Shown piece after piece: positions 5,105 to 43,670 of a stretch of DNA of 58,411 bases. A program made the translations under genes and the position numbers. The notes under the pieces are model-generated. The model was not told where the DNA came from, made no database searches, and saw only the letters and a list, made by a program, of their open reading frames with translations. This DNA comes from a virus (taxonomy: Duplodnaviria; Caudoviricetes). The stretch covers positions 1-58,411 of the IMG/VR virus record IMGVR_UViG_3300034072_001300; one strand, given 5' to 3'. Positions within the stretch are counted from its first letter, which is position 1, and every line of letters begins with the position of its first letter.

Positions 5105-5794
5105 ATGCAAGAACCACAAGAAAATATAAAAACTGAATTTATAAATTATGTAAAAAAGAAAATATATAATATAGAAGATATTGAATATGCTAATAAAGGA
5201 TTATCTGAAATGGCTATAGCAGCAAAAGGTGATTGGCCTAAAATAAAAGAAATGGTTACATCAATTACACCATTTATAATTGAGAAAAAATGGGATTATA
5301 TAGATTCTTTATATTTAAAGAATACAATATATAGAATATATAAGCAAAAAAACGTTTATGTATTAGGTTATTTTATAGAAAGAGCCGAAAGCACTGAGTT
5401 TATAGTGGAATTAGAAATAAAATTATCTCTTGAAACAGAAATAATGAATGAATTTAATTTTAAAAAGCAACTTATGAATGTTGATGGTGTTAGAGTAAGT
5501 GAAACTTCACAAGGGAGGGGATTGGCAACTCAAATGTATAAGTTTTTAGTTAAAAATGAAAATTTTATAATTCTTGGTGATGAGATACAATTCTTTGGTG
5601 CTAGAAAACTTTGGAGTAGATTATCTAAAGAAATTGATGTTAGAGTAGATATAATAGATATTGATTCTATTAAAGTTCTTGAGAAAGATGTTATTTTAAA
5701 GCACGGGACAGATGATTGGGATTTTGACAAAAGAGTTTGGTCTTATGATTTAGATAAAAGATATATTAGATTAGTTCTAAAAGAAATTAAATAA
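5105..5794 (+). CDS. GNAT-like acetyltransferase, paralog 1, with N-terminal leader
   Basis: VRVSETSQGRGLATQMY acetyl-CoA motif A; QFFGARKLW. Confidence 0.7.
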   Translation: MQEPQENIKTEFINYVKKKIYNIEDIEYANKGLSEMAIAAKGDWPKIKEMVTSITPFIIEKKWDYIDSLYLKNTIYRIYKQKNVYVLGYFIERAESTEFIVELEIKLSLETEIMNEFNFKKQLMNVDGVRVSETSQGRGLATQMYKFLVKNENFIILGDEIQFFGARKLWSRLSKEIDVRVDIIDIDSIKVLEKDVILKHGTDDWDFDKRVWSYDLDKRYIRLVLKEIK

Positions 5795-5810
5795 GCTCAA
5801 AAGAGCTTAT
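5791..5810. terminator. bidirectional terminator hairpin
   Basis: ataagctc-aaaa-gagcttat between convergent genes. Confidence 0.7.
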
Positions 5811-5822
5811 TTAAAAGAATAA

Positions 5823-6431
5823 TTAAGACATTAAAGTATTATATCTTTTTGTTCTATCTTCTAATCCGTGTGTTCCGCCATTTATTCTTTTAGTACAAGT
5901 TAAAATATCTTTAGAATCCGCAAATTTATTCAGATTATTTTTATTCCAAAACCAAACGGCTGTTTTTATTGCTATTGACAAATCACTTCTTATTAATTCT
6001 GGGTTTGAAACAATATCAATCCCTGTATCTTTACTAAAATTTGTAAAATTTTCTTTACCTGTTAATTGTATAAAACCAAATCCTCGATATTTCCATCCAT
6101 CACCCGAATTTTCCGAACCATTCCCCATTCGATTTGCATAAACTCTATTTGCTATTTTTTCGGGTTTTCTTTCATATTCTGATGCAATTTTATCATCTAA
6201 AAAATATCTTCCAAATACTCCTCTTAAAGCTTTAGCACTATAATTAAGATTTTCATTAAATCTCGTAAACCCCGCACTTTCATGCCCGCACTGTGCTAAA
6301 AACATATTTACTCTTTCCTTAGTATCAATACCAGATGAACTTAATATATTATCAAATAGATTACATAACTCATTAGGGTTTTTACATTCTGGGAAGGCCT
6401 GTTTAAACTTATTAATATCAATTTTATACAT
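5823..6431 (-). CDS. glycoside hydrolase family 19 endolysin
   Basis: FLAQCGHESAGF, ENLNYS, DGWKYRGFGFIQLTGK, INGGTHGLEDR. Confidence 0.92.
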   Translation of the reverse strand: MYKIDINKFKQAFPECKNPNELCNLFDNILSSSGIDTKERVNMFLAQCGHESAGFTRFNENLNYSAKALRGVFGRYFLDDKIASEYERKPEKIANRVYANRMGNGSENSGDGWKYRGFGFIQLTGKENFTNFSKDTGIDIVSNPELIRSDLSIAIKTAVWFWNKNNLNKFADSKDILTCTKRINGGTHGLEDRTKRYNTLMS

Positions 6432-6449
6432 TTTTAATCCTTTTTAAAT

Positions 6450-6457
6450 TATTTATA
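6450..6457 (-). promoter_or_regulatory. late promoter TATAAATA
   Basis: exact motif just upstream of endolysin RBS. Confidence 0.7.
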
Positions 6458-6470
6458 ATTTTAATGAATT

Positions 6471-6675
6471 TTTCAAATTTAAAGAATTTTTTGAACTTAA
6501 AAAGAAAATTAATATATTCAAATTTTTGAAATTTAAAATATTTTTTGAACTTAAAAAGAAAATTAATATATTCAAATTTTTGAAATTTAAAATATTTTTT
6601 GAACTTAAAAAGAAAATTAATATATTCAAATTTTTCAAATTTAAAGAATTTTTTGAACTTAAAAAGAAAATTAAT
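6471..6675. repeat. 54-bp tandem repeat, about 3.8 copies
   Basis: gaactt recurs at 6493, 6547, 6601, 6655; unit aaatttaaa(ga/at)attttttgaacttaaaaagaaaattaatatattcaaattttt(g/c). Confidence 0.95.
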
Positions 6676-6718
6676 AAAAAATGTATTAAAATCTAATAAT
6701 TCAAAATAAAGGAATAAA

Positions 6719-8691: not shown

Positions 8692-8696
8692 TTCTT

Positions 8697-8704
8697 TATA
8701 AATA
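8697..8704 (+). promoter_or_regulatory. late promoter TATAAATA
   Basis: upstream of spanin pair. Confidence 0.65.
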
Positions 8705-8722
8705 ATTTTAAAAGGAGTAACT

Positions 8723-9537: not shown

Positions 9538-9584
9538 TTTAGGTTTAATACTATTTAGTATATAATTAAATAAAGAAGGAAATA

Positions 9585-10235
9585 ATGCTAAAGTTCAGAG
9601 AATGGTTAAAAGAAAAGGAATTAAATGAAATGTCACCAGTAAAAATGATGGGAAATGCACCATTTGAAAGTTTAGGAAATTTATCGAAAAGTAAAAACTC
9701 ATTAGAAGAAGACTATATTAAAATTGCGGAATTAAATGAATATGATGTTGTTTATAAGCACAAGAAATTAGAATTAATAATTGTTGTTAGAGAATTTTTT
9801 GAAGAATTACGACAAGAGATTAGATATGCTATTATAGCAGAAATGAGTTTTAAAATAGATAAAATAAAATCAACAAATAAATTAATAAACAATAAAGAAG
9901 CAGTAATTTTAAAGACTATAAATGTTAGAGAAGCAAATAGAAGACAAAATATAGCATCTAAACTATATTTACTACTTTCTGAGTATTATATTGTTATTTC
10001 AGACAGTGTTCAATATGAAGGAGCAGTAAAACTTTGGAAATCATTTATAAGAATTCCAAATATAGTTCTTTATATTTGGGATGAGCAAGAAGATAAAATT
10101 ATTTCAAAAATGACTTCTAAAACCCATGATAATGCAATTTGGAGTAATGGTGATTTAAAAGATTATTCTAAAATGAAAGTAAGATTAATTTTAATAAATG
10201 CAGATAGTAAAAATAATTCAAATAAAGATAATTAA
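9585..10235 (+). CDS. GNAT-like protein, paralog 2, with capsid-targeting-like leader
   Basis: INVREANRRQNIASKLY...SDSVQYEGAVKLW; leader MLKFREWLKEKELNE. Confidence 0.6.
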   Translation: MLKFREWLKEKELNEMSPVKMMGNAPFESLGNLSKSKNSLEEDYIKIAELNEYDVVYKHKKLELIIVVREFFEELRQEIRYAIIAEMSFKIDKIKSTNKLINNKEAVILKTINVREANRRQNIASKLYLLLSEYYIVISDSVQYEGAVKLWKSFIRIPNIVLYIWDEQEDKIISKMTSKTHDNAIWSNGDLKDYSKMKVRLILINADSKNNSNKDN

Positions 10236-10271
10236 TACTATTTAGTATATAATAAAACAAAAAGGAGATTA

Positions 10272-10853
10272 ATGTATCACACACCATATATTACAAAACA
10301 AATAGGAAGATCAACAAAATTAATTGATATTCCAACAGAAATGCTTTCACAAAGAATTATTTACTTAGGAACAGAAATAAATGATTATGTTGCAAATAGT
10401 ATTATTCAACAAATGATGTGGTTAGCAACAGTTAGTGAAGATGATATTGATTTATATATCCAAAGTCCAGGCGGTTCTGTATATGCTGGCTATAGCATAA
10501 AAGATTGTATGGATATTCTTGCTAAAAAAGGCATAAAAGTTAATACAATTGGAACTGGTTTGGTTGCAAGTATGGGTGCTTATCTATTATCGGCCGGTAC
10601 AGGTAAAAGAAAAGCAACAAAAAATTGTAGAATAATGCTTCACTCAGTATCTAGTGGTACAAGAGGAACAATCCATGATATGACTGTTGATTTTGAAGAA
10701 TCTAAATTTTTAAATGATTCTTTGATGGTTGATATTTCTAACTTCACAAAAAGTAAAAGTACAGTTGAAGATATTAGAAAAAAATGTGAAAGAGATTGTT
10801 ATATGTCTGCAGAAGAAGCAATTAAAATAGGATTAATAGATGAAAAAATTTAG
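10272..10853 (+). CDS. clpP: ClpP-like protease subunit
   Basis: RIIYLG, QSPGG, VASMG catalytic Ser, MLH, ERD. Confidence 0.92.
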   Translation: MYHTPYITKQIGRSTKLIDIPTEMLSQRIIYLGTEINDYVANSIIQQMMWLATVSEDDIDLYIQSPGGSVYAGYSIKDCMDILAKKGIKVNTIGTGLVASMGAYLLSAGTGKRKATKNCRIMLHSVSSGTRGTIHDMTVDFEESKFLNDSLMVDISNFTKSKSTVEDIRKKCERDCYMSAEEAIKIGLIDEKI

Positions 10854-11373
10854 CGAAATAATTATTGAAAACATTATTAAATTTCAAAGAGAAAATAACT
10901 CTTCAATAGTAGAAAATACATTTAGAGTTGGGACAGAATATTGGTGTAAATACTGGGAGGGTCTAAAGGAAAATAAACAAAAATATTTATCAGAATTAAA
11001 TGAGTTCGAAAAAGAAATCTTGGAAACAGATATTGGTCTTAAAGCAATATATGAAAATGAAGAAGTTCTTTTAGATTATCCTTATATAAATGAGAAATAT
11101 GAAGATGTTGAATTAAATTCACCAAAACGAGGTGGTGATAAGAAATTTTATGTTTATGTTAAAAATGATAAAGGTAATATTGTTAAAGTTCAATTTGGTG
11201 ATACTACTGGTCTAAAAGTGAAAATAAATGATAAAGAAGCAGCTAAAAGTTTTGCAGCTAGGCACCAATGCGAACTAAAAACAGATAAAACAACACCTGG
11301 CTATTGGGCTTGTAGAGTACCTAGATACGCAAAACAATTAGGATTAGAAGGCGGCGGGAATTACTGGTGGTAA
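10840..11373 (+). CDS. conserved phage protein (DUF6321-like C-terminus)
   Basis: KKFYVYVK...VQFGD...SFAARHQC...GYWACR. Confidence 0.55.
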   Translation: MKKFSEIIIENIIKFQRENNSSIVENTFRVGTEYWCKYWEGLKENKQKYLSELNEFEKEILETDIGLKAIYENEEVLLDYPYINEKYEDVELNSPKRGGDKKFYVYVKNDKGNIVKVQFGDTTGLKVKINDKEAAKSFAARHQCELKTDKTTPGYWACRVPRYAKQLGLEGGGNYWW

Positions 11374-11374
11374 T

Positions 11375-11659
11375 ATGAAATATTGTCTTACTAAAAATAA
11401 AGAAAATCCATATACGTATAAAGGACATTTAAGAATATTTTCTAAAGAATTAAATTCAAATGAACTTAAATGGCATAGAGACCGAGGTGATAGATTTATT
11501 AAAGTTATCTCTGGGGAAAATTGGTATTTGCAGTTTGATAATTGTGTACCAATTTTGCTTTTAAAGAATAAAATTTATAAAATACCTTCATCAGCTTATC
11601 ATAGATTAATAAATAATTCCAATACAGATTTAAGAATTAAAATATTAACAAAAATATAA
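11375..11659 (+). CDS. small cupin-fold protein
   Basis: WHRD...IP...YHRL metal-binding pattern. Confidence 0.55.
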   Translation: MKYCLTKNKENPYTYKGHLRIFSKELNSNELKWHRDRGDRFIKVISGENWYLQFDNCVPILLLKNKIYKIPSSAYHRLINNSNTDLRIKILTKI

Positions 11660-11662
11660 ATA
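11655..11662 (+). promoter_or_regulatory. late promoter TATAAATA
   Basis: upstream of two leader-bearing genes. Confidence 0.6.
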
Positions 11663-11681
11663 ATATAAAAAGGAAATAAAT

Positions 11682-12050
11682 ATGGGTCAATTTAGAGAAT
11701 ATTTAAACAATTTAGGTTTAGATAAAGAATTATCCGAAGCATTTAAAAATACAGCTATTCCTACAAAAATTCTTGGATTCAAAGAAGATTATATAATTAA
11801 TCAAGTTCTAAAAGATACAATTGATATTTTTGATAAGGATGGTGAATTTGTTACACTAAAACCAAAAGATTCTTTATTTAAAGAACTTGAGAAAATTATT
11901 CAAAATTCAGAAATTACAAAATACTATGATTATAAAAAAGAATTTGATCACAATAAGTACTATATTAAAAATGATTGGGATTCAGATTATGTTGTTACAA
12001 AAATTGTTGGTGATTTGCCAATAAATAAAATCAAAAAACTATTTAACTAG
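11682..12050 (+). CDS. hypothetical, putative internal head protein
   Basis: leader MGQFREYL...LSE; late promoter. Confidence 0.55.
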   Translation: MGQFREYLNNLGLDKELSEAFKNTAIPTKILGFKEDYIINQVLKDTIDIFDKDGEFVTLKPKDSLFKELEKIIQNSEITKYYDYKKEFDHNKYYIKNDWDSDYVVTKIVGDLPINKIKKLFN

Positions 12051-12060
12051 GAGAAAAATT

Positions 12061-12516
12061 ATGATTAAATTCAAAGATTGGATGGCTGAAAAAGAAGCAG
12101 CTAAAAATATTAACGAAAAAATCACAACTGGATCAGATACCGGTAACATTAATATGTTATTAACAGAAACGTTACATTTTGCAAATCAAATTCACGTTTG
12201 GCATTGGTTAGCTAAAAGCGGGCAAAAACACACCGCATTAGGAGCTTTTTACGCAGTATTAAGAGAATCTATAGATGGTATTGCAGAAACTTTAATCGCT
12301 CAAGGTATTACACCTGTTTCTAGAGGTTCTAAGACATTAGATGTTATGTATTCAGATGACGTAATAACATATCAAACAAATGAATATAGACAATTTATTA
12401 CAAATTTAATTGATGAAATTTCAGTTGATAAAACAGATATTTCAAATCTTAGAGATGCCTTAGTTGATATTCAAGAAGAAATTGATAAATTTATTTATCA
12501 ATTTGATTTAGAATAA
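12061..12516 (+). CDS. ferritin/Dps-like protein (DUF5856-like) with leader
   Basis: QIHVWHW...HTALGAFY...IDGIAE; leader MIKFKDWMAE...INE. Confidence 0.7.
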   Translation: MIKFKDWMAEKEAAKNINEKITTGSDTGNINMLLTETLHFANQIHVWHWLAKSGQKHTALGAFYAVLRESIDGIAETLIAQGITPVSRGSKTLDVMYSDDVITYQTNEYRQFITNLIDEISVDKTDISNLRDALVDIQEEIDKFIYQFDLE

Positions 12517-18653: not shown

Positions 18654-20942
18654 ATGAAAGAAGCAATTAGAAAAATTTCTGTTAAATTCTTTACTGAAGA
18701 AGCTATTAATGAATTCTCAAAAAAATTAATAACTACCAATCAAGAACTAACAAAAAACGTAAAAGAACTACACATAACATATAAAACAGAAGAAAAATCT
18801 ATAAATGAACTTAATTACAAGTTAATATATAGAAAACCTGTTTTTCAAAAACCAAAAGATAAAAAAGAATGGGAATATCATTGGAATGATTTAACTCCTT
18901 TTTATATAACTCCATCAAAAGCATTAGCAACTATTGAAATGTATTTCCCGGACTGTTTTACAAATTCAATTTTAGCTGAACTTTTTAACCAATCGATAAC
19001 AAATGCAACAAAATCAATAAGTTATCCGAAGGCAGAAGTTCTAGAAGTAAATAAAAAGAGATGGCTAGGCGAAAGGGGTAATCCAAAATATCCTATTTAT
19101 ATTATTTCTAAAGGCCGTTCAGAAACTTGTATCACGGCTGATCATCTTATAAAAATGGAAATACCATTCCACATTGTTATTGAAGAACAAGAGCACGAAG
19201 ATTATGCTAGATTTTATGGAGATAATGAACTTGTAACATTATTACATTTAGATTTAAAATTCAGAAAAGAATATGATACATATATTGAAGATTTTGATGA
19301 AACAAAATCAAAAGGTTCGGGTCCTTCAAGAAACTTTGTTTGGAATCATGCTAAAGAATCAGGCGCAAAATGGCATTGGATTATGGATGATAATATTATG
19401 GGATTCTATTACTACAATGATAATCAAAGAATAAAAGCAGTTGATGGGACATTATTTGCAACAGCGGAAGATTTTGTTGACAGATACGAAAATATTGGTA
19501 TTGCTGGTTTAAATTATTTTATGTTTGCAGTTCCTGGTGCAAAAGATAGACCTTATGTAGCAAACACAAAAATTTATTCTTGTTTACTTATTAGAAATGA
19601 TACAACTGTTAGATGGGCAGGTAGATATAATGAAGATGTTGATGTTTGTATAAGAGCATTAAAAGAAGGATATAGTACAATTCAGTTTGATGCTTTTTTA
19701 TCGGATAAAATGCAAACACAATCAATGGGTGGTGGAAATACCGATGCTTTCTACGCAGAAGAAGGAACATTACCAAAATCAAATATGTTAATGCATAATC
19801 ACCCTGATATTACAGAAGTTATGTGGAGATTTCAAAGATGGCACCACTTAACAAATTATGATATTTTTGATTATTACAAAGATAGAAATCTTAAAGAAAC
19901 AATTCAAGATATGATGAAACCACAAATTTTAGATAGAATATTAGATGCTGATATTATTAATGAAATTTCAAAAATTGATTTTAGTAAATTAAAAAAATGG
20001 GATATTTTAAAAGATATACCAAATTCAAAAAGAGAAAAAATATTTGAATGCTTAAAATTCTATAGATATAAAAAGAACACAGAAGAAATTATTGATATTA
20101 TTACAAGACCCCAATTAATAAGTTGTGATTTAGATTCATATCTTTTAGATAATGATATTCCTGACACTTTAGATAATAAAATAATGCTAGATATTTTTAA
20201 TCTAGGTGAACACAAAGAAGACAAATTATTTTACTGGAGAGATTTTAATGAATATTTTTCATATGTTCCAGAAGAAAGAAGAAAATTAATTATAGCAGAA
20301 TTAATTAGAAATAAATATCTTCAAAAACCTTATGAAAAATATACATATAATATTAAAGAAGTTATTCTTTCACAAGAAGATCATTTACAATTTAGAGATT
20401 CAAAACCGGTTATTCAAAATATTTTAAATATTGATGGTATTTCAGATAGACCTGAAATAGCTACAAGAATATGTTTAAGAAAAAGAGGCGAATTAAAGGT
20501 TCAGAATAAAAAGAAATTTAAAGTTAATTTAACTGCTAGAGGTTCAGTTCTTAAAAAAGAACACGAAGGTAAAACATTGATGCTGATTGGTGATGAAAAT
20601 TTTGATAGTACAGAAATTTTCGAAAGTACAACAGAACAATTCATCAAAGATTATAATATTGATGAAATTATTAACTCTGTTAATTACAAGGTTGATTTAA
20701 TGAGTGCAAATTTTGCTCTTGATAAAAAACTTAAAAATAGAGAATTTGTTCCAGATTTAATACTTCACACAAAAGGTGCTTATGCAGAAATGTATAAAAA
20801 TATGGTTCAATATACAGATTATTGTATTATATTCTCATCTGATAAATTAACAAAAGATTTAGAATTTTTGGTAGAACAATTAAAAATTAACAATAAAGAG
20901 TATATAATCAAATACAAAAACATAGTTGCAGATGAATGGTAG
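18654..20942 (+). CDS. GREB1/TET-associated-type GT-A glycosyltransferase with N-terminal partner domain and degenerate SLOG-like C-terminus
   Basis: YPIYIISKGR, GSGPSRNFVW, WHWIMDDNI, GRYNEDVD, GGNT, RFQRWHH. Confidence 0.8.
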   Translation: MKEAIRKISVKFFTEEAINEFSKKLITTNQELTKNVKELHITYKTEEKSINELNYKLIYRKPVFQKPKDKKEWEYHWNDLTPFYITPSKALATIEMYFPDCFTNSILAELFNQSITNATKSISYPKAEVLEVNKKRWLGERGNPKYPIYIISKGRSETCITADHLIKMEIPFHIVIEEQEHEDYARFYGDNELVTLLHLDLKFRKEYDTYIEDFDETKSKGSGPSRNFVWNHAKESGAKWHWIMDDNIMGFYYYNDNQRIKAVDGTLFATAEDFVDRYENIGIAGLNYFMFAVPGAKDRPYVANTKIYSCLLIRNDTTVRWAGRYNEDVDVCIRALKEGYSTIQFDAFLSDKMQTQSMGGGNTDAFYAEEGTLPKSNMLMHNHPDITEVMWRFQRWHHLTNYDIFDYYKDRNLKETIQDMMKPQILDRILDADIINEISKIDFSKLKKWDILKDIPNSKREKIFECLKFYRYKKNTEEIIDIITRPQLISCDLDSYLLDNDIPDTLDNKIMLDIFNLGEHKEDKLFYWRDFNEYFSYVPEERRKLIIAELIRNKYLQKPYEKYTYNIKEVILSQEDHLQFRDSKPVIQNILNIDGISDRPEIATRICLRKRGELKVQNKKKFKVNLTARGSVLKKEHEGKTLMLIGDENFDSTEIFESTTEQFIKDYNIDEIINSVNYKVDLMSANFALDKKLKNREFVPDLILHTKGAYAEMYKNMVQYTDYCIIFSSDKLTKDLEFLVEQLKINNKEYIIKYKNIVADEW

Positions 20943-20961
20943 AATTTTAAAATTCTACCAT
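20937..20961 (+). terminator. hairpin terminator
   Basis: atggtagaattt...aaattctaccat followed by T run. Confidence 0.55.
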
Positions 20962-20999
20962 TTTAAGACTATAAATACTTAAAAACTTAAAGGAGATTT

Positions 21000-22166
21000 A
21001 TGAAAATTACAGTAGTAGGAAGTGGTTACGTAGGAACAAGTATAGCAGTTTTACTTGCACAAAAAAATAAAGTGAGATTATTAGATGTTATTCCAGAAAA
21101 AATTGAAATGATTAATAATAAAATATCACCAATAGAAGATAAAGATATTTCTGAATATCTACAAAAAGATTTAAACTTAATTGGAACATTAGATAAAGAA
21201 TATGCATATAAAAATTCTGATTTTGTTGTTATTGCGGTACCAACTGATTATAACCCAGAAACAAATTATTTTAATACTTCACTTATTGAATCAGTTATTA
21301 AAGATGTTTTAGAATATGCACCCAAAACTGTTAATATGGTTATTAAAAGTACAATTCCCGTTGGATATGTTGAAAAAGTTAGAAAAGAATTTGGTATAAC
21401 AAATATTATGTTCAGTCCAGAATTTTTAAGAGAAGGAACTGCACTTAAAGATAATCTTTACCCAAGTAGAATTATTGTTGGTGAAAAACATACTAAAGCA
21501 ATTGAATTTGCTAATTTATTGTTAGAATGTTCTTTAAAGAAAGATGTTAAAGTTATATATACTAATCCAACCGAAGCAGAAGCAGTAAAATTATTTGCTA
21601 ATAATTATTTAGCAATGAGAGTTTCATTTTTTAATGAATTAGATTCTTATGCAGAAGTTAATGGTTTAAATACAAAGGATATTATTGATGGTGTTAGTTT
21701 GGATCCAAGAATTGGAACACATTATAATAATCCAAGTTTTGGGTATGCAGGCTACTGTTTTACAAAAGACGTTCAACAATTAAAGGCTGATATGTATAAT
21801 ACACCTAGTAATCTAATTACATCTATTCACGATTCAAATGAAAAAAGAATTAAATTTATTGCTGATAACATTATTGCTAAAAATCCAAAAACTGTTGGTA
21901 TTTACAGATTAACAATGAAAGCAAACTCAGATAACTTTAGAAATTCAGCGGTTCAAAGAATATTAACATATTTACAAGAAAAAAATATAAATGTTATTAT
22001 TTATGAACCAACTTTAAAAACAAATAAATTTAATGATATTGATGTTTTAAATACAGATGAATTTTTTGAAACTTCAGATATTATTATCGCTAATAGATTT
22101 GAACACAAATTAAGTGATTATGAAGATAAAGTTTATACGAGGGACATATTCAATACTGATTCTTAG
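21000..22166 (+). CDS. ugd: UDP-glucose 6-dehydrogenase
   Basis: GSGYVG, IKST, FSPEFLREG, AEAVKLFAN, GYAGYCFTKD, SDNFR. Confidence 0.95.
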   Translation: MKITVVGSGYVGTSIAVLLAQKNKVRLLDVIPEKIEMINNKISPIEDKDISEYLQKDLNLIGTLDKEYAYKNSDFVVIAVPTDYNPETNYFNTSLIESVIKDVLEYAPKTVNMVIKSTIPVGYVEKVRKEFGITNIMFSPEFLREGTALKDNLYPSRIIVGEKHTKAIEFANLLLECSLKKDVKVIYTNPTEAEAVKLFANNYLAMRVSFFNELDSYAEVNGLNTKDIIDGVSLDPRIGTHYNNPSFGYAGYCFTKDVQQLKADMYNTPSNLITSIHDSNEKRIKFIADNIIAKNPKTVGIYRLTMKANSDNFRNSAVQRILTYLQEKNINVIIYEPTLKTNKFNDIDVLNTDEFFETSDIIIANRFEHKLSDYEDKVYTRDIFNTDS

Positions 22167-22185
22167 TATTGAATATTTTTAAAAT

Positions 22186-22965
22186 ATGTCAAGAAAACAA
22201 AAAGATTACAAGTATCATTATACATATAGGATAACAAATATAATAGAGAAAAAATACTACTATGGTGTTCATTCATGTAATTGTTTACCCAAAGAAGATA
22301 TAGGAGTTAAATATTTTAGTTCAAGTAAAAATAAAGCATTTAAAGATGATATTAAAGAAAATCCCCAGAATTATAAGTACAAGGTTGTTAAAATATTTTC
22401 TACTAGAAAAGAAGCTTTAGAGCATGAAATATTTTTACACAATAAATTTAATGTTGGTGTTAATAAAAAATTCTATAATGATTCGAAACAGGGTTCTACA
22501 AACCGTGATACATCAGGTTTATTCCCTGCTAGGGATGTAGATGGTAATATATTTATGATCTCTAGAGATGACGAAAGATTTATATCCGGAGAATTAGTGT
22601 CAATAAATAAAGGGCGAAAATTGAATTTTTCTATAGAACATAGAGCAAATCTATCAAAAGCTCTAACAGGCAAACCAAAATCACCTGAACACCGTTTAGC
22701 AACTAGTCTCGCGACTAACACCCGAGGCAAAAATCACCCAAGATTTAAAGGTTATTATGTAACACCTATGGGTACATTTGATTCACCTGCTGCTTGTATA
22801 CCAATTATATCTTTAACACAAATGAAAATATATTGTAATGATTGTGATACTAAAATAACAGCTAAAGCTTATAATAAATCTAGGTTTTTGCAATTATTTT
22901 ATGCATATGAAGAAGTTAAAGATAGAACATATAAAGATTTAGGATTTTGGAGAGATTATATCTAA
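22186..22965 (+). CDS. GIY-YIG (Seg-like) homing endonuclease
   Basis: YTYRITN...YYYGVHS, ALEHE, FYN; NUMOD3-like repeats. Confidence 0.8.
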   Translation: MSRKQKDYKYHYTYRITNIIEKKYYYGVHSCNCLPKEDIGVKYFSSSKNKAFKDDIKENPQNYKYKVVKIFSTRKEALEHEIFLHNKFNVGVNKKFYNDSKQGSTNRDTSGLFPARDVDGNIFMISRDDERFISGELVSINKGRKLNFSIEHRANLSKALTGKPKSPEHRLATSLATNTRGKNHPRFKGYYVTPMGTFDSPAACIPIISLTQMKIYCNDCDTKITAKAYNKSRFLQLFYAYEEVKDRTYKDLGFWRDYI

Positions 22966-23017
22966 AAATTAACATCTTGTATTATATAATTCTATAAATA
23001 ATCTAAAAGGATAATAA

Positions 23018-23902
23018 ATGAAAAACAAAAAAATATTAGTTACAGGTGCAGCTGGTTTTATTGGTAGCAATCTGTGCGAAAGACTTGTAGCAGATAATGA
23101 AGTTGTTGGAATTGACAATTATTTCACTGGTTCAAAAGATAATCATATTGTTGGAGTTAAATATATTGAATCAGATGTAAAATATATTGATAAATGCTTA
23201 GAAGAAATTAAATTTAAACCGGATGTTATATATCATTTAGGGGAATATTCAAGAGTTGAACAATCTTATGAAGATGTTGGAACTGTTTTAGATTTTAATA
23301 TGGATGGTATAAAAGCAGTTTTAGAATATGTTAGAAAAAATGGATGTAAATTAATTTATGCAGGGAGTTCTACAAAATTTTCTGACATTGGGAAAGATGG
23401 GTCACCTTATGCTTGGACAAAAGCAACAAATACTGAACTTGTTCAAAATTATGGTAAATGGTATAACATAGATTACGCAATTACATATTTTTATAATGTT
23501 TATGGTCCGAGAGAAATTAAAGACGGAAAATATAGTACATTAATTGCTAAATTTTCTGAATTGTATAAAGAAAATAAAGAATTAACTATTGTTTTACCGG
23601 GTAAACAAAAAAGAAATTTTACTCATATTGATGATACTGTTGATGCTTTAGTTCTAATTGGTGAATTTGGAAAAGGTGATGAATATGGTATTGGTTCAGA
23701 TGAAGCATTTAGCATTTTAGATGTTGCTAATATGTTTTATTCAGATAAAACAAAAATCGAATTTTTACCCGAAAGACCAGGCAATAGAATGACTGCTTCG
23801 GTTGTAACAGATAAAACCAGAGCATTGGGTTGGGAACCTATAAGAAATCTAAGAGATTATATATCTAATATAAAGGAAAAATATGCAACAAATGCAAAAT
23901 AA
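23018..23902 (+). CDS. NAD-dependent NDP-sugar epimerase/dehydratase (extended SDR)
   Basis: TGAAGFIG, AGSS, YAWTK, FYNVYGP, RNFTHIDD. Confidence 0.9.
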   Translation: MKNKKILVTGAAGFIGSNLCERLVADNEVVGIDNYFTGSKDNHIVGVKYIESDVKYIDKCLEEIKFKPDVIYHLGEYSRVEQSYEDVGTVLDFNMDGIKAVLEYVRKNGCKLIYAGSSTKFSDIGKDGSPYAWTKATNTELVQNYGKWYNIDYAITYFYNVYGPREIKDGKYSTLIAKFSELYKENKELTIVLPGKQKRNFTHIDDTVDALVLIGEFGKGDEYGIGSDEAFSILDVANMFYSDKTKIEFLPERPGNRMTASVVTDKTRALGWEPIRNLRDYISNIKEKYATNAK

Positions 23903-36157: not shown

Positions 36158-36423
36158 GTGAAAAATATTTTAAAATTAGTTTTAGTACTAAGTGCTGTTT
36201 TTGCGATTTTTGTTTTAACTGGTTGCACAGAAAAAGATAAAACCGAAGTATTACTCAAAAACAAGGATATACTCATATAACAACGGATGGTTATTCTTTC
36301 TTTGGTTGTTCTAAAGGTGATACTTTTAGAACAAAATTTTATGCAAAAAGCTCAACAGGAGAAACAATCAGCGGTGTTGCTTGTAGTGGTTGGTTAAAAG
36401 GAACAACTTTAAGATTTGACTAA
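36158..36423 (+). pseudogene. frameshifted lipoprotein gene
   Basis: lipobox LTGC in one frame; QGYTHITTDGYSFFGCSKGD...VACSGWLKGTTLRFD in another; A5 run at 36257-36261. Confidence 0.7.
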
Positions 36424-36436: not shown

Positions 36437-36459
36437 TTTAATATTCTTTTGTATATAAT
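36437..36459 (+). promoter_or_regulatory. early promoter TTTAATATTCTTTTGTATATAAT
   Basis: near-identical copies at 34563, 43677, 45195, 48802, 52601, 56600. Confidence 0.8.
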
Positions 36460-36486
36460 TAATATAAATTAAAAAGGGAAGATAAT

Positions 36487-37071
36487 ATGATTAAATTTAC
36501 TGATTGGTTAAAAGAAAAAGAATTAACGGAAATGCCAAGATATATTGATCACGAATATTTAGATTTTAAACCTATGAAGGATTTAGGTATGACTGGTTTA
36601 GAAAAAACTTGGCAACAATTAGAAGTAAAATTCATTGGAAATAAAAAGAATGATTCACTGTGTTTTGTAAAAAAGAGTAAATCTATAGCAGTTATTGGTT
36701 TAACTGTTTGGGATGATAATTATAAGTGCTGGAATTTAGAAGTGGCTAGTTATGTTAAACTTGAAAAAACACCAATAACAGGAGATCACTATAAAGTTAT
36801 TGGTGTTTTTACAAAAGAAGATTATAGATTAGAAAAATATACATTAACATTATATTATACATTAATAAAGAACGGAATTAAGTTGTGTTCTGATAATGAA
36901 CAATATCAAGGTGCTAAATATTTATGGAAAGCATTATCTAGAATAACACCAATTGAAATTTATGATGAATTAAACAATACTTATAAAGATTACTCTTTTG
37001 TGAACACAAAAGATGAAGAAGTATGGAGTAAAAATTATTCAAAATATGATATTGTTTTAAGAAGTAAATAA
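36487..37071 (+). CDS. GNAT-like protein, paralog 3 (degenerate motif A), with leader
   Basis: SDNEQYQGAKYLWKAL, EVWS; leader MIKFTDWLKEKELTE. Confidence 0.55.
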   Translation: MIKFTDWLKEKELTEMPRYIDHEYLDFKPMKDLGMTGLEKTWQQLEVKFIGNKKNDSLCFVKKSKSIAVIGLTVWDDNYKCWNLEVASYVKLEKTPITGDHYKVIGVFTKEDYRLEKYTLTLYYTLIKNGIKLCSDNEQYQGAKYLWKALSRITPIEIYDELNNTYKDYSFVNTKDEEVWSKNYSKYDIVLRSK

Positions 37072-37120
37072 TTTACAACCGAAATGTTGTAAAACTAAAT
37101 ATTATCTAAGGAGTTTAGAA

Positions 37121-38566
37121 ATGCAAAATATTAAAAATTTTGAAGAAAATAGAGTTATGCTAAGTGATTCTTACAAGTACAGTCACTATTTACAATATCC
37201 AAAAAGAACTGTAAATATGTATGATTATGCTGAAGCACGAAGCTTAAAAGAATATGATAAAACATTGTTCTTTGGTTTACAAATGATGTGGAAAAAGTAT
37301 TTTACTAAAAAAATAACAATTAAAGAAGTTGATGAAGCATCTATGTATGCTAAAGCTCACGGAATTCCGTTTAATTTAAAGGGTTGGAAAAGAATTGTTA
37401 GAAAGTACAAAGGTAGATTACCTGTTACTATTAAAGCTGTTCCAGAGGGAACTGTTATTCCGAATAAAATGGTTTTATTCACGGTTGAATTAACAATAAA
37501 TGATAAAGAAATTTTTTGGTTACCTTCTTGGTTAGAAACATTCTTAATGAAAGTTTGGTATACTTGTAATGTTGCCACAAGAAGTTATTTTGTTAAAGAA
37601 ATGTTATTAGAACAAGGAAAATTAACATCTGATAATTCATTTGTTGATTTCCAATTTCATAATTTTGGGGATAGAGGTTCAAGTTCGGTAGAATCTGCTG
37701 CTTTTGGTGGAGTTGCTCACTTAGCTTGTTTCAAAGGGACAGATAATTTTAATTGTTTAAGATATGCTCATTTACTTATGAATGAACCTATTGAAAATAT
37801 TGCATATAGTATCGCTGCATCAGAACATAGCTCAACAACAGCTTGGGCAAAAGATGGTGAATTTGATATGGTTATGAACCATTTAGAAAACAATAAAGGT
37901 AACCCTTTAATGGCTTCAGTTGCTGATTCATATGATGTATTTAATTTTACGGATAAAGTAACATCGGGTGAATTTAAAAGAAAAATTGAATCTGATGAAT
38001 ATCCAAAATTCATTGAAAGACCAGATAGTGGTTATGCACCTGATATTATTTCGGAGATGTTAAATATTCATGAGAAAAATGAAGTGAAATTCACTGAAAA
38101 TTCAAAAGGTTATAAAACATTTGATAAGTATGGCTTTATTTGGGGTGATGGTATTAAAATGAATACTATGGTTGATATTTTGACTACTCTTAGATTAAGA
38201 ATGTATTCAACTGAAAATCAAGCATTTGGATCAGGCGGTTGGTTAATGCAACAACACGATAGAGATACTTTAGGTTTTGCTATTAAATGCAGTAATATTA
38301 CTTTAGAAGATGGTTCAGAAATTGAAGTTTATAAAGATCCAATCACAGATCCGGGTAAAAAATCTAAAAAAGGTAAAGTTACAACATATTTTAATAGAGC
38401 AACAGATGAATTCTTTGTGGATATTATTGGTAATGAATCAATTGATTGTCCAGAAGTTCTTGAAACAGTTATTGAAAATGGAATTCTTGTAAAAGAAGTT
38501 ACATTATCTGAAGTTAGAAATAGAGTTGATAAACAATTGGCCGGTATTAAATTTGGGAATTTATAA
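37121..38566 (+). CDS. nadV: nicotinamide phosphoribosyltransferase (NAMPT)
   Basis: DSYKYSH, HNFGDRG, GTDN, ASEHS, DSYD, RPDSG, GDG, KSKKG. Confidence 0.95.
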   Translation: MQNIKNFEENRVMLSDSYKYSHYLQYPKRTVNMYDYAEARSLKEYDKTLFFGLQMMWKKYFTKKITIKEVDEASMYAKAHGIPFNLKGWKRIVRKYKGRLPVTIKAVPEGTVIPNKMVLFTVELTINDKEIFWLPSWLETFLMKVWYTCNVATRSYFVKEMLLEQGKLTSDNSFVDFQFHNFGDRGSSSVESAAFGGVAHLACFKGTDNFNCLRYAHLLMNEPIENIAYSIAASEHSSTTAWAKDGEFDMVMNHLENNKGNPLMASVADSYDVFNFTDKVTSGEFKRKIESDEYPKFIERPDSGYAPDIISEMLNIHEKNEVKFTENSKGYKTFDKYGFIWGDGIKMNTMVDILTTLRLRMYSTENQAFGSGGWLMQQHDRDTLGFAIKCSNITLEDGSEIEVYKDPITDPGKKSKKGKVTTYFNRATDEFFVDIIGNESIDCPEVLETVIENGILVKEVTLSEVRNRVDKQLAGIKFGNL

Positions 38567-38769: not shown

Positions 38770-39122
38770 TTTTATTTTAAGTGATTTTTATATATAATTA
38801 TTATATTAAAATAAAAAGGGTATAAAATGATTTCAGGATTTTTTAAAGCAACATTAAAAATACATCAAGTCATAGATTAATTGAAAACCATTATTTATTT
38901 GGTTGGATGATGTAATAGAAGATAAAATTCATTTAAAGGGATATTTGATAGGTACAAAATTTTATGATGATTGTACATTGTCTTTAGCTGATAAAAATGA
39001 CGCTGATTTTATAAAATATTTTGGAAGTGATTTAGTTCAAATTCAAAAAGATATTGATAAATTAGAATTATTAAAATCTAGATTATCACAAGCATTAAAA
39101 TAATATAATTAGGGAGACTAAT

Positions 39123-40181
39123 ATGAAAAAGAAAAAAGTAGCAATCTACATTGGTAGATTTGCTCCACCACACAAGGGGCATGAAGAAACAATCCAATAT
39201 TGTTTAAATAAATATGATGAAACTATAGTTTTTATTGGTTCACAAAATAAAAGAAGAACTTTAAAAAACCCATTTAAAGTAGATAATATTATAAAATGGA
39301 TATATAGATCTGTTAATTTTAATGACAGATTAATATGTAAGTCTATTAATGACTATTTATATTCTGATAATAAATGGATAGCACAAATTGAAGATTATGT
39401 GTATTCAATATTTAATAAAGATGAGTATGAATTTACAATTGTTGGTCATATCAAAGATGATTCAAGTTATTATTTAAGAATATTTCCAACTTGGAAAGTA
39501 GATTTAACACCTGAATTTGATAATGGTATTTCAGCAACAGATATTAGAAACATTATTTTTATGGAAGATGAAAGACATTTTGAAGTTCTTTTTGAACACA
39601 ATTGTAAACCGCATTTATCTGATAATGTTGCAAATGATATAATTGAATTCAGAAAAACACAAGAATTTAAAGATTTAATGCAAGAACAAACGTATTTTCA
39701 AAAAGAAGATGCTAAATTTGCAAATTATCCTTATAAAGATACTTTAAAATTTAACTGCTCAGATGCTGTCGTCGTTTGTGATGGTAATGTGCTTTTAATC
39801 GAAAGAACAAGAGCACCAGGAAAAGGAACTTGGGCATTACCAGGAGGTTTTGTTAATAAAAATGAAACTTATGAACAAGCCGCAATTAGAGAATTATTTG
39901 AAGAAACTTGTTTAAAGGTTCCTGAAAAGGTTTTAAAAGGTTCATTAAAAAGAAGTAAAATTTTCGATAGTCCTAAAAGAAATGAAGGGATTCCTAGAAT
40001 TACAAATGCATTTTACTTTGAAATTCAACCAGATTATAAAAATGGTTATCCTAAATTACCAAAAGTAAAAGGTTCCGATGATGCGGTTAATGCTAAATGG
40101 TTCAGCTTAGCTGAAGTAAGACATATGACATTATTTGATGATCACGCAGACATAATTGATTATTTCACGAATTCATATTAG
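39123..40181 (+). CDS. nadM: bifunctional NMN adenylyltransferase / Nudix ADP-ribose pyrophosphatase
   Basis: GRFAPPHKGH, ISATDIR, Nudix box GGFVNKNETYEQAAIRELFEET. Confidence 0.95.
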   Translation: MKKKKVAIYIGRFAPPHKGHEETIQYCLNKYDETIVFIGSQNKRRTLKNPFKVDNIIKWIYRSVNFNDRLICKSINDYLYSDNKWIAQIEDYVYSIFNKDEYEFTIVGHIKDDSSYYLRIFPTWKVDLTPEFDNGISATDIRNIIFMEDERHFEVLFEHNCKPHLSDNVANDIIEFRKTQEFKDLMQEQTYFQKEDAKFANYPYKDTLKFNCSDAVVVCDGNVLLIERTRAPGKGTWALPGGFVNKNETYEQAAIRELFEETCLKVPEKVLKGSLKRSKIFDSPKRNEGIPRITNAFYFEIQPDYKNGYPKLPKVKGSDDAVNAKWFSLAEVRHMTLFDDHADIIDYFTNSY

Positions 40182-40189
40182 TATAAATA
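40182..40189 (+). promoter_or_regulatory. late promoter TATAAATA
   Basis: directly upstream of leader-bearing 40209. Confidence 0.6.
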
Positions 40190-40208
40190 ATTAAAAAGGG
40201 GGAAGTTA

Positions 40209-40916
40209 ATGTCAACATTTAGGGAATGGTTACGAGAAGCAGAGATTAACGAAGTCAAAAAATACGATAAAGTTGTGAAATTTATAGATAAAATAAAAAA
40301 TATCTCTGTTAAAAATTTTTTATTTCAAAGACTAAGACTAAAAGATAAACCAACAATGGGTTATAAAGGTGGATATGGAGACACATATATTATTAAAAAT
40401 GGAAAAAGAGAAAATTCTATAGATTTTATACATTATTATAATGGTGTGAAATTAACGTCTGGTTATATACAGATACTTTTTATTAGTGGTAAAAATGTTA
40501 TTGTTTTTGGTTCACAGGGAAGTACAGACTATGAATTTTTAAGAGCAACAGATAAAGAAAGTTTGAAGAACGCCATAAGTGATTTACAAATAGTTGGTAA
40601 AATATTATTAGTTTTAGGCACACAAGAAATTAAAACTTATGAAGGTTTTGTTAATAATGCATTAGATGAATTGAATACCAATTTAAACTCTAAAAAAGAG
40701 AAAAAAGTTGTTTTTGAAGAATGTGTTGAATATATGTATAACGCAATAAAAGCTAGAAAGACTAACAAATTATCTTTTCAAATATCTGAATCTGATGTTA
40801 GAAATTATTTAGATGAGTACGATGGATTAACAAGGGTTAAAACACTTGATGAATTTAAGAATAAAGTAAAAGATATAGATTATTATATTATGAGAATTGT
40901 AAATACAGATATGTAA
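40209..40916 (+). CDS. hypothetical, putative internal head protein
   Basis: leader MSTFREWLREAEINE; late promoter. Confidence 0.6.
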   Translation: MSTFREWLREAEINEVKKYDKVVKFIDKIKNISVKNFLFQRLRLKDKPTMGYKGGYGDTYIIKNGKRENSIDFIHYYNGVKLTSGYIQILFISGKNVIVFGSQGSTDYEFLRATDKESLKNAISDLQIVGKILLVLGTQEIKTYEGFVNNALDELNTNLNSKKEKKVVFEECVEYMYNAIKARKTNKLSFQISESDVRNYLDEYDGLTRVKTLDEFKNKVKDIDYYIMRIVNTDM

Positions 40917-41011
40917 ATTTAAAATAATTAATTTAAAATAATTAATTTAAAGGTATGAAAATTATTTATATAAATTAAATTCTATTTATTAAAAATAAAT
41001 TTATTTTGAAT

Positions 41012-41041
41012 AAAAGCTAGATAGAAATATCTAGCTTTTTT
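41012..41041 (+). terminator. rho-independent terminator
   Basis: aaaagctagat-agaaat-atctagctttttt. Confidence 0.75.
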
Positions 41042-41130
41042 AGTTTAGAAAACAAATTTAAAAAATTTAAAAGATTTTTTGAACTTAAAATTTAAAACAA
41101 GATCTATAACTAAACTTATATCCATTTGCT

Positions 41131-41814
41131 TTTTAAGTTCAAAAATTTCTTTAAATTTTAAAAATTAAAATTTTAATTTATCTTTAAAATGTTTTAGTAT
41201 ATAATTATGTATTTAAAATTAAGGAAAAATATGCCAAAAGCAATAAAAGGGGATTATAATATATCTACTGATTTAAGAACTTTAAATCAAGATGAAATGA
41301 AAAACTATATTTTTATAGATAAAATAGATACATTTGAGTTATATAATAGAATTAATACAGAAATTAAATTGATTAATAATTGCGATTATATTCTTGGTTA
41401 CTACGCACTAAATAATCAATTTAAGAAAGTTGCTAAAATTTATTTTAATAAAATAGATAATTATTATGAAGTTGATACAATTTATGTTTCAAAAGATTTT
41501 AGAGGTTCTGGAATAGCATCTAAATTATATACTTATTTTGCTAAAAATCTAAATTATAGTATCTTAAGTTCTGATATGCAAAGATTTGGAGCAAGAAGAC
41601 TTTGGAGTAAATTATCTAAAAATTCAAATTTAACTATTGATGTTATTGATTTTAATAATAAAGAAATACTTGAGAATAATATAATTATTAATCACGGAAC
41701 AAAAGATGAAGAATTTGATAATGGATTTTGGTCTTATGATAATGATAAGAAAAATATTAGATTTATCTTAAAAAGCTTAAATGCTAAAATTTAAAGAAAT
41801 TTTTGAACTTAAAA
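41131..41814. repeat. perfect 30-bp inverted repeat (41131-41160 / 41785-41814) bracketing a GNAT gene
   Basis: ttttaagttcaaaaatttctttaaatttta and its exact reverse complement. Confidence 0.9.
41231..41794 (+). CDS. GNAT-like acetyltransferase, paralog 4 (leaderless)
   Basis: IYVSKDFRGSGIASKLY, QRFGARRLW; start MPKAIKGDY after AAGGA RBS. Confidence 0.75.
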   Translation: MPKAIKGDYNISTDLRTLNQDEMKNYIFIDKIDTFELYNRINTEIKLINNCDYILGYYALNNQFKKVAKIYFNKIDNYYEVDTIYVSKDFRGSGIASKLYTYFAKNLNYSILSSDMQRFGARRLWSKLSKNSNLTIDVIDFNNKEILENNIIINHGTKDEEFDNGFWSYDNDKKNIRFILKSLNAKI

Positions 41815-41880
41815 TTTAAAAAATTAATTTATCTTTAAACTGTTTTAGTATATAATAAAATAAAAAGCAAAAGGGTAAAT

Positions 41881-43046
41881 ATGAAATACAAATATTTAGA
41901 AATTGGTAATAAACATCTAAATTGTGAAATTAGAAAGGTTATAGAAAAAGAATATTCAAGTTCTAAATTAATTAATTTTATGTCTCACAAGATTAAAAAT
42001 ATTGAACATATTAAAGTTTATTTTAAAAATGAATTACATTTAGTAGTTTCTATAAAAATAGACGAACCATTTGCTACGATTTTAGGTATTTCAAAAGTTT
42101 TAGAAGTAAAGGAATAGATATGTACTTAGAAAATATACCAACCGAGTGTAAAAAATTCGGAATAAATAAATTACTTGTAACAAGGGGCTTAACAATAGAT
42201 TGGAAACATAGAGATACCGAAATTCACTTAAGAACACCTGAATTATTGGATAATATTTCAGAAGATTTTTCAATTTCTGATGTCTATAAATGCCGTTCGC
42301 AACAATTAAGATATATTTATCATATTTCAAGAAGTACAATGAAAAATACAAATCCAAATGAATTAACAAATTCTTTTAGTAATATGAGCATAAATATGCT
42401 TTTTGAACTTGAAGCATCATTTTTTATTGATTTTGAATTAATAAGAAATCATATAGAACTAATACCAAATAATATTTTAAAAGAATCGTTTGTATTTTCA
42501 TTAAATATAAATCAGCGAGAAATAATTAAATATTTTGTGAAGCATAATATTGATATCCCAAAAAGAATAGATAGATTAAATAAAAAAGAACTTTTTAATG
42601 AAATGAATAAAAATATTAGTACTGTTCTATATAAAGAAAATACATTCACAAATGAAGATGAAATTACTTTTTGGATAAGTAATTTTCATTTATATTCATA
42701 TATTGAAGGAAATAATGGATTAAAAAGTATCAAATTCAAATCAGATAAATATCTATCAAAAATAAAAAGATTATAAGGAATAAATATGAATAAAATATTA
42801 AAGTTCGGTGATACATATAGATTTAAAACAAAAGGAATGCATAAATTATTTAATTACGTAAGAGAAGGGGAAGTTCTTTATTATTGGACTGATGCTTTTG
42901 CTGATGTTTCAAATATTAACAATTTGGAAATTGTTAAATCTCAAGATTATAGTGCTTATGAAGCTGATAGAAAATGGTGTGAATATAAAAATAAATTAAA
43001 AATCAAAATAAATAATTGCTTATATAACGAAATATTAAAACTTTAA
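41881..43046 (+). other. three hypothetical early genes (41881, 42120, 42786)
   Basis: promoter 41824-41856, RBSs. Confidence 0.6.
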
Positions 43047-43100
43047 TTTATCTTTAAATTGTTTTAGATATAATAAAATATATAAAATAAAAGGAAATAA

Positions 43101-43670
43101 ATGTCGAAAGCAATTAAAGGAGTATATGAAATTCCAGAAATCTATATGAATGCAATAGAAATCGATAATTTTAAAGAAAAATATGTGTTTCAAGATTATT
43201 TAATTAATTATTTACTATATAAACATAAAACAGATAATAATTGGTGTTTAGGTTATCTTAATGATTCTGAAACATTATTTATTCCTATAGGTCGAATATG
43301 GTTTGATACAGAATATGGTAACAAATTAAATAATTCTTATAGAAATATACACATTGTTGATGAAATAGCAGTAAATAAAGATTATAGATGTTTGGGTGTA
43401 GCAACTAAATTATATACTTATTTTGTTAAAAAACATAATTATACATTAATGAGTTCTTATTTGCAATATTTTGGTTCTAGAAAATTATGGTCTGCACTAT
43501 CAAGAGATAATAATTTAAGCGTTGATATTATAGATATTGAAAATAACAAATTAATTGATAAAAATGCTATTATATATCACGGTGATTTAGATGAAGAATT
43601 TGATAAAAGAGTTTGGTCATATAATTCAGATGCTATAAATATAAGATTAATTCTAAAAGCCAAACTTTAA
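43101..43670 (+). CDS. GNAT-like acetyltransferase, paralog 5 (leaderless)
   Basis: IAVNKDYRCLGVATKLY, QYFGSRKLW, FDKRVWSY. Confidence 0.72.
   Translation: MSKAIKGVYEIPEIYMNAIEIDNFKEKYVFQDYLINYLLYKHKTDNNWCLGYLNDSETLFIPIGRIWFDTEYGNKLNNSYRNIHIVDEIAVNKDYRCLGVATKLYTYFVKKHNYTLMSSYLQYFGSRKLWSALSRDNNLSVDIIDIENNKLIDKNAIIYHGDLDEEFDKRVWSYNSDAINIRLILKAKL

Follow-up and report, generated by a model that had tools for sequence, protein, structure and literature searches.

The window analysed here is the whole of a 58,411-base IMG/VR virus record (IMGVR_UViG_3300034072_001300; Duplodnaviria, Caudoviricetes), which has 24.5% G+C and an estimated completeness of approximately 30% and comes from an uncultured T4-like phage. 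It carries five paralogous open reading frames (ORFs) for GNAT-like proteins, named below by their first positions (5105, 9585, 36487, 41231, and 43101). They occur in two forms, three with an N-terminal leader and two without. We lean towards the reading that the leader-bearing form is cargo of a T4-style phage head and that the leaderless form is an intracellular sister clade, in the manner of Alt versus ModA and ModB in phage T4, where ModA and ModB are early-expressed paralogues of the packaged Alt ADP-ribosyltransferase. Genes for T4-type replication and packaging are present in the window, namely those for a B-family DNA polymerase, a clamp loader, the large terminase, and nucleotide metabolism.

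Five paralogues of a large, unnamed family

The five ORFs were verified at the positions given in Table 1, and all lie on the plus strand. When the 43101 protein was used as the query against the window, 41231 was recovered with an expectation (E) value of 2.7e-35 (47% identity), 5105 with 2.7e-31, 9585 with 3.6e-6, and 36487 with 1.9e-4. Moreover, all five copies matched the same unnamed family, phrog_15502. The five ORFs are true paralogues in two forms, and the five-member family that an earlier note on this DNA had proposed was thus borne out.

The five window proteins were aligned with 32 of 35 database matches. The omitted ones were P0036, a fragment of 105 residues, and P0007 and P0017, which appear to have wrongly called starts. 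Among the resulting 37 rows, Q122, G125, L129, D145, D168, and W172 (43101 numbering) were invariant. The three motifs named previously, a motif-A-like segment, Q-x-x-G-[AS]-x-x-LW, and a late WS, are all present; the Q, G, L, and W of the second motif are invariant or nearly so, and the late W-S contains W172.

A profile search of 1.84 billion representatives returned 1209 proteins at E ≤ 0.001, 418 at 1e-10, and 141 at 1e-30, these family representatives being clustered at 50% identity. The family is large, unnamed, and virus-borne, and no named family fits it beyond the GNAT superfamily at the fold level. Nothing in NCBIfam came near a cut-off, and a cluster look-up with six representatives gave one 'hypothetical protein' label and no informative name.

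The leader and the capsid-targeting sequence of T4

The leaders end in GLSE (5105), ELNE (9585), and ELTE (36487), and each is followed by a Met that aligns with Met1 of the leaderless copies. This relation, already noticed for the window copies, was found throughout the 37-row alignment, in which all 22 leader-bearing rows end in [LIVM]-x-E exactly at the junction and all 15 leaderless rows begin there.

The T4 record gives MKTYQEFIAE as the beginning of ipII and ipIII and MKTFKEFTSTTTPVSTITE as that of ipI. Passages of PMC9026906 assign targeting to residues 4 and 7 of the T4 capsid-targeting sequence and processing to residues 8 and 10, and describe T4 Alt as packaged and processed; according to section 2.6 of the same source, the first 10 residues of T4 IPIII are enough for head loading. 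The leaders of 9585 (MLKFREWLKEKELNE) and 36487 (MIKFTDWLKEKELTE) follow the pattern M-x-K-F-x-[ED]-W-L-K-E and, as at the decisive T4 positions, have F4, W7, L8, and E10 (as in MLKFREWLKE). Both have a second [LI]-x-E at positions 13 to 15. The likeness to T4 capsid targeting that the earlier note had drawn is upheld by this match, by the conservation of [LIVM]-x-E, and by the portability of the leader.

The same leader was found on three ORFs unrelated to the family (11682, 12061, and 40209), with a weaker version on 10840, all of which had been missed before. The pattern M-x(1-3)-[FYW]-x-[ED]-[FYW]-[LIVM] opens five of the 93 window ORFs (9585, 11682, 12061, 36487, and 40209), while 2000 residue shuffles gave on average 0.16 such ORFs and never more than 3. 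F4 and W/Y7 are present in all five. If the weaker version of 10840 is counted, four of the six ORFs across 9585-12516 carry the tag. In its mature part, 40209 shows no relation to the GNAT-like family (hhalign probability 0.4%), and a search of a large database gave no homologue of 40209 besides itself. Since the same leader heads unrelated ORFs, such as 40209 and the DUF5856-like 12061, the tag is evidently portable across unrelated cargo. It also seems to be held more tightly than the cargo, because 11 of the 15 leader residues are identical between 9585 and 36487 and their mature parts are alignable over 78 residues only, at 36% identity.

For the family as a whole, the N-termini were classified for 146 of 150 listed representatives, the other four being already in the alignment. 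A leader ending in [LIVM]-x-E no more than three residues from the junction was present in 101 of the 146; seven had a leader without [LIVM]-x-E at the junction, five were leaderless, 32 had an N-terminus that was not alignable, and one was a fragment. The last leader residue was Glu in 105 of the 108 leader-bearing representatives listed. Among these 108 leaders, P3 was Leu in 67, Ile in 21, Val in 9, and Met in 5, and P1' was Met in 52, Gln in 15, and Thr in 11. Their median length was 13 residues, and 48 have an aromatic-x-x-aromatic pattern near the start. Leaders close to those of T4 occur in the family (MKTFKEFIAE, MKTFKDFLLE, and MQTFNEYLFE); a tblastn search of cultured phages with P0093, which has a T4-like leader, gave no match. 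Judged from these sequence features, the leader is quite likely a head-targeting propeptide that is removed by a protease.

One representative, P0112 (312 residues), has a T4-like leader, an extra module of approximately 100 residues, a second junction (L-L-E), and then the GNAT-like domain. It looks like a two-module cargo pro-protein.

The leaderless form as a lineage

In a tree of the mature domains (37 rows, quick IQ-TREE search), the 15 leaderless rows formed one side of a single branch, with a value of 96 in the Shimodaira-Hasegawa-like approximate likelihood ratio test (SH-aLRT). One state change is enough for this distribution, and none of 500 label shuffles was as low. Since the leaderless rows group on one branch, the leaderless form is, on this tree, a real conserved lineage and no start-codon artefact. 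The analogy of Alt versus ModA and ModB, made in the earlier note, predicts a distinct leaderless clade, and such a clade was found. Leaderless members also occur on long contigs, of up to 308,917 bases.

If every copy started at the junction Met and the leaders were untranslated, the two forms would be an artefact of start-codon choice. The frequency of Met at P1' agrees with this explanation, as does an AAAGGA located 10 nt before the junction ATG of 5105 (5192-5212), but no Met is present at 56 of the 108 junctions and each leader is preceded by its own ribosome-binding site. Moreover, protein-level conservation of the leaders (F-x-E-W-L ... [LIVM]-N-E) extends across a subfamily at 55-76% identity, and the same leader stands on unrelated ORFs. 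The artefact explanation is close to refuted.

The AAAGGA of 5105 might also allow a leaderless product to be made from this copy by internal initiation. For 41231, the longest frame opens at 41207, but 41231 itself is the start that agrees with the homologues, with the promoter position, and with the ribosome-binding site. Complete record G002 contains a copy of the leader-type subfamily (L009, 9739-10341) that begins precisely at the junction Met, behind a ribosome-binding site of its own; it is at least one further leader loss, independent of the main leaderless clade.

Predicted fold and motif A

The AlphaFold2 model of 43101, built with the 37-row alignment, had a predicted local distance difference test (pLDDT) score of 91.7 and a predicted template modelling (pTM) score of 0.89. 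In an exhaustive structural comparison with 48,161 representative chains, the best 50 rows for this model were all of the GNAT type, with Z values of 6.3-8.7 over residues about 30-189. Foldseek gave weak matches with the same model (best E 1.6e-3, TM about 0.35), and every listed row was a GNAT acetyltransferase. The model of 9585, built with 30 subfamily homologues, had a pLDDT of 76.9, and its best 50 rows were again all of the GNAT type (Z 5.8-7.7). In this model, the leader is a short, detached helix (residues 2-10), followed by a disordered stretch (residues 11-28) that holds the junction. Structure prediction had been suggested earlier as a check of the fold, and both models came out as GNAT. 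Since the Z values are middling, the case for the fold rests on the uniformity of the match lists; on these models, a GNAT-type fold is predicted for the family with high confidence.

Against the Pfam model PF00583 (Acetyltransf_1, cut-off 20.7 bits), 41231 scored 24.2, 43101 19.9, and 5105 12.7, and 9585 and 36487 had no match; some ESM Atlas neighbours carry PF00583. The family is like the GNAT superfamily (PF00583, the N-terminal acetyltransferases, and the tRNA-acetylating toxins AtaT and TacT) in its predicted fold, in a beta4-alpha3 motif A in three of the five copies, and in a motif-B-like helix, A-R-K-L-W-S-K-L-S. It differs in that the Pfam cut-off is reached by one copy of five only, that Trp stands where motif B usually has Tyr, and that an extra loop, H-G-D-L-D-E-E-F-D-K-R-V-W-S-Y, is conserved.

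Three copies (5105, 41231, and 43101) retain an intact motif A, with the consensus Q/R-x-x-G-x-G/A; 9585 and 36487 have lost it. The earlier note had described the latter two as eroded. The loss is seen in both, but 9585 is not decaying, as it belongs to a conserved, leader-tagged subfamily. There are 38 homologues of 9585 at 55-99% identity; all full-length members but one have the leader F-x-E-W-L ... [LIVM]-N-E followed by Met, and the Gly of motif A varies from member to member. The notion that 9585 and 36487 are decaying copies was therefore rejected, at least for 9585.

Cultured relatives and the head protease

Among 50,697 cultured phage records, relatives of the family were found only in T4-like Campylobacter Firehammerviruses (CP220, CPt10, CP21, and IBB_35). 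Each of 15 Firehammervirus records has two tandem homologues, which show about 27-29% identity to 5105 and are annotated as hypothetical in all of the records but one, which has no annotation. In IBB_35, the two genes (AEI88181.1 and AEI88180.1) are neighbours of gp6. In CP220, gp042 and gp043 lie in tandem beside a baseplate gene. Both begin with MKFSDFLEE followed directly by QAIAKSGDY, and this leader occurs within CP220 only on these two proteins. They are true, leader-bearing homologues of the window copies; unlike in the window, both copies bear a leader, and no leaderless copy was seen there. No such protein is named in the passages obtained from the CP21 paper.

Peptidase_S77, the family of gp21, was found in CP220 (75 bits) and in four of five related IMG/VR records, both complete ones included. 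ClpP is encoded in the window inside the leader-tagged cluster 9585-12516 and in three of five related records (G001, G003, and CP220); in G001, it lies approximately 3 kb downstream of a family member. ClpP is unlikely to be the protease that processes the leader, as two of the five family-bearing relatives are without it.

Upstream motifs

A generic sigma-70 scan was uninformative in DNA of this base composition (72 sites versus 66.9 expected), so positional motif counts were used for the promoters. Two sharply defined classes of upstream motif, with 35 sites in the window, were obtained. Class 1, TTAAT-N-CTTTAAT-N-TATATAAT, lies 13-29 nt before 18 ORFs, and it heads 5105, 9585, 36487, 41231, the ClpP gene, and, between 41 and 57 kb, a large number of small ORFs. 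An ATATAAT variant of the class 1 box precedes 43101. We infer that class 1 represents early, host-sigma-type promoters. Class 2 is the T4 late box, TATAAATA, located 17-23 nt before the ATG of the endolysin gene and of 8723, 11682, 21000, 23018, 27863, 31241, and 40209.

The type of promoter, in correction of the earlier reading, does not divide the two forms, since the TATATAAT type is common to leader-bearing and leaderless copies. The observation that the leader-bearing GNAT copies are without a perfect TATAAATA was correct by the upstream motif counts. As an argument it has no weight either way, since T4 ipI, ipII, and ipIII are also without it in the 60 nt upstream.

Points against the proposed reading and alternative explanations

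Several observations weigh against the delivery of these proteins in a T4-type head, or against their being enzymes. Neither head or tail genes nor a Peptidase_S77 were found in the window, whose record is approximately 30% complete, and a DNA polymerase search for a longer contig of the same phage yielded 13-kb and 9.6-kb fragments only, in which no head module was seen. The leader of 5105, as had been missed before, is longer than those of 9585 and 36487 and of another type, without the aromatic 4/7 pattern. The nearest homologues of 5105, P0031 and P0033, both have canonical leaders. In the quick tree, 9585 and 36487 lie on very long branches. Furthermore, the leader-bearing GNAT copies share their promoter class with the leaderless ones, and a late-type box is present among the tagged ORFs only on 40209 and 11682, which does not fit a simple late-versus-early split. 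The shared promoters are nevertheless not strong evidence against head loading, because the T4 ip genes lack the late box too, 9585 lies downstream of the late-box gene 8723, and in some relatives, tandem boxes of both types precede leader-bearing copies.

As for the enzyme, Z values below about 8 are called common by the structure tool, and the sequence profile matched only two acetyltransferases among solved structures, at non-significant E values of 0.069 and 0.38. Nine of the 37 rows, six of them from the leaderless clade, do not keep the central Gly of motif A, and conservation is strongest elsewhere, in Q-x-F-G-A-R-K-L-W and D-x-x-F-D-x-R-V-W. Because this Gly is variable and the most conserved residues are elsewhere, the use of acetyl-CoA is uncertain, and acyl transfer by the copies with an intact motif A stands at even chances.

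The leader could be a true head-targeting signal and the GNAT-shaped domain non-enzymatic, a ligand-binding or structural internal head protein such as a sensor of coenzyme A (CoA) esters or a head filler. Such a protein would agree with the strongly conserved positions outside motif A, with the variability of the Gly even in tightly conserved subfamilies, and with the two best structural rows of 43101, which are the non-catalytic, acyl-CoA-binding C-terminal domain of Mycobacterium tuberculosis ICL2 and Rv1916 (Z 8.7 and 8.6). However, rows within 1 Z unit are tied, the remaining rows are active acetyltransferases, and Q/R-x-x-G-x-G/A is kept in 28 of the 37 aligned members. A head filler, in particular, makes the leaderless intracellular clade hard to account for, and the mature proteins, with isoelectric points of 6.4-9.0, are unlike a strongly basic DNA-coating protein. 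We regard a non-enzymatic head protein as unlikely.

A further possibility is that the leader is another kind of N-terminal helix, such as a ClpP degradation tag or a tag for oligomerisation or localisation, and that all copies are intracellular. The position of the ClpP gene amid the tagged cluster, the promoters common to both forms, and the lack of head genes in the window would all be expected in that case. The leaders, on the other hand, agree with the T4 signal at each tested position, Glu ends nearly all of the leaders listed, Peptidase_S77 is present in the relatives and ClpP in only three of five, and the T4 ip genes are likewise without a nearby TATAAATA. An intracellular tag of this kind is quite improbable.

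Proposed mechanism and comparison with known systems

In the head-cargo reading that we favour, the short propeptide ahead of the enzyme-like domain in most members, including 9585, 36487, and probably 5105, would be the counterpart of the T4 capsid-targeting sequence. Through this short helix, which has aromatics as residues 4 and 7, the protein would dock onto the scaffolding core of the assembling head, and cleavage after [LIV]-x-Glu would follow, by a head protease of the T4 type (Peptidase_S77, gp21-like). The mature protein would stay inside the head and be ejected with the DNA into the next host. The sister clade (41231 and 43101) would have lost the propeptide, starting at what would be the mature N-terminus, and would be made only in the infected cell. 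We infer packaging, cleavage, ejection, acetyl-CoA use, and a target; that the protein is ejected into the host and acts there may equally well be true or false.

The family resembles the T4 internal proteins in having a short N-terminal propeptide whose residues 4 and 7 are aromatic and which contains [LI]-x-E at positions 8-10 or further on, in combining a conserved tag with hypervariable, unrelated cargo, and in that its relatives are T4-like phages encoding Peptidase_S77. In contrast to the small basic cargo proteins of T4, the cargo here is a GNAT-fold domain of approximately 190 residues, with several diverged paralogues per genome. Many of its leaders are also longer (up to 35 residues in the window), with the cut site at the end instead of at residue 10. 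With Alt, ModA, and ModB, the family would share the use of one enzyme family in a head-delivered form and in a form made after infection, as proposed here. It is unlike them in that its fold and chemistry are those of GNAT and not of an ADP-ribosyltransferase, and in that the promoter classes of the window do not part the two forms.

Coordinates and other features of the window

Table 1. Positions of the GNAT-like paralogues, other tagged ORFs, the ClpP gene, and associated signals in the window
Feature	Position	Strand	Remarks
GNAT-like paralogue, leader-bearing	5105-5794	+	Leader of 35 residues (5105-5209), long and atypical, ends G-L-S-E before MAIAAKGDW; motif A intact (QGRGLA)
GNAT-like paralogue, leader-bearing	9585-10235	+	Leader of 15 residues, MLKFREWLKEKELNE (9585-9629); motif A Gly lost (RRQNIA)
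GNAT-like paralogue, leader-bearing, most diverged	36487-37071	+	Leader of 15 residues, MIKFTDWLKEKELTE (36487-36531); motif A lost
GNAT-like paralogue, leaderless	41231-41794	+	Starts MPKAIKGDY; motif A intact (RGSGIA); above PF00583 cut-off
GNAT-like paralogue, leaderless	43101-43670	+	Starts MSKAIKGVY; motif A intact (RCLGVA); structure modelled
Orphan ORF with the same leader, MSTFREWLREAEINE, unrelated mature part	40209-40916	+	T4-late-type TATAAATA at 40182-40189
Small unrelated ORF with leader-like N-terminus, MGQFREYLNNLGLDKELSE	11682-12050	+	TATAAATA at 11655-11662
DUF5856-like ORF with leader-like N-terminus, MIKFKDWMAE	12061-12516	+	11 nt after ORF 11682
ORF with weaker capsid-targeting-like start, MKKFSEIIIE	10840-11373	+	Judged by eye
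ClpP gene	10272-10853	+	PF00574, 153.8 bits
TATATAAT box, class 1	9559-9566	+	Before 9585
Class 1 box	5071-5078	+	Before 5105
Class 1 box	36452-36459	+	Before 36487
Class 1 box	41198-41205	+	Before 41231
Terminator-like hairpin	36306-36334	+	Upstream of 36487
Terminator-like hairpin	41012-41039		Separates 40209 from 41231

Genes of nicotinamide adenine dinucleotide (NAD) salvage lie between the leader-bearing 36487 and 40209, at 37121-38566 and 39123-40181 on the plus strand, and encode a nicotinamide phosphoribosyltransferase and a nicotinamide mononucleotide (NMN) adenylyltransferase-Nudix protein. The large terminase is spread over two overlapping ORFs on the minus strand (400-2886 and 2862-3602). 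In the 828-residue terminase ORF, both ends match terminases and the part in between (about residues 317-620) has no match, an arrangement that suggests that an element has been inserted or that the gene is split. At 6467-6676, between the divergent endolysin gene and ORF 6719, lie 3.9 copies of a 54-bp unit (96% identity).

Directly upstream of the DNA polymerase gene, the plus-strand stretch 18654-24851 holds a glycosyltransferase-like gene and genes for a uridine diphosphate (UDP)-glucose dehydrogenase and a nucleotide-sugar epimerase, and it is interrupted by a homing-endonuclease-like ORF (22186-22965). This stretch may be a module for DNA hypermodification. A transposase-like ORF (57337-58410, plus strand; phrog_506, E 2.5e-86) runs off the end of the contig. 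An Rfam scan of the window gave no match.

Implications

The T4 capsid-targeting tag is the textbook route by which ready-made proteins are delivered together with phage DNA. To our knowledge, Alt is the one enzyme among its known cargo, which otherwise consists of a handful of small internal proteins. In the literature searched, no paper joining the capsid-targeting sequence and an acetyltransferase was found, and nothing relevant on an ejected GNAT-type internal head protein was found by title or abstract start. Here, the tag is borne by members of a very large family, which is unannotated and has the fold of an enzyme. The Campylobacter Firehammerviruses are cultured carriers in which the prediction is directly testable, and the leaderless sister clade provides a natural control pair for what delivery adds. 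The tag is also a simple rule for spotting more cargo genes in uncultured T4-like phages.

If active, these proteins would represent injected enzymes of a new class that modify the host, and they would be candidates for counter-defence. More tentatively, and with the odds rather against it, we speculate that an ancient effector family with the acetyltransferase fold is the commonest enzyme cargo of T4-type heads and has been divided again and again into one arm delivered with the virion and one expressed anew. The host might then be modified in two waves, at DNA entry and after early transcription, and the subfamilies that reside together, numbering at least five in a third of this genome, might each be aimed at a different host target or defence system.

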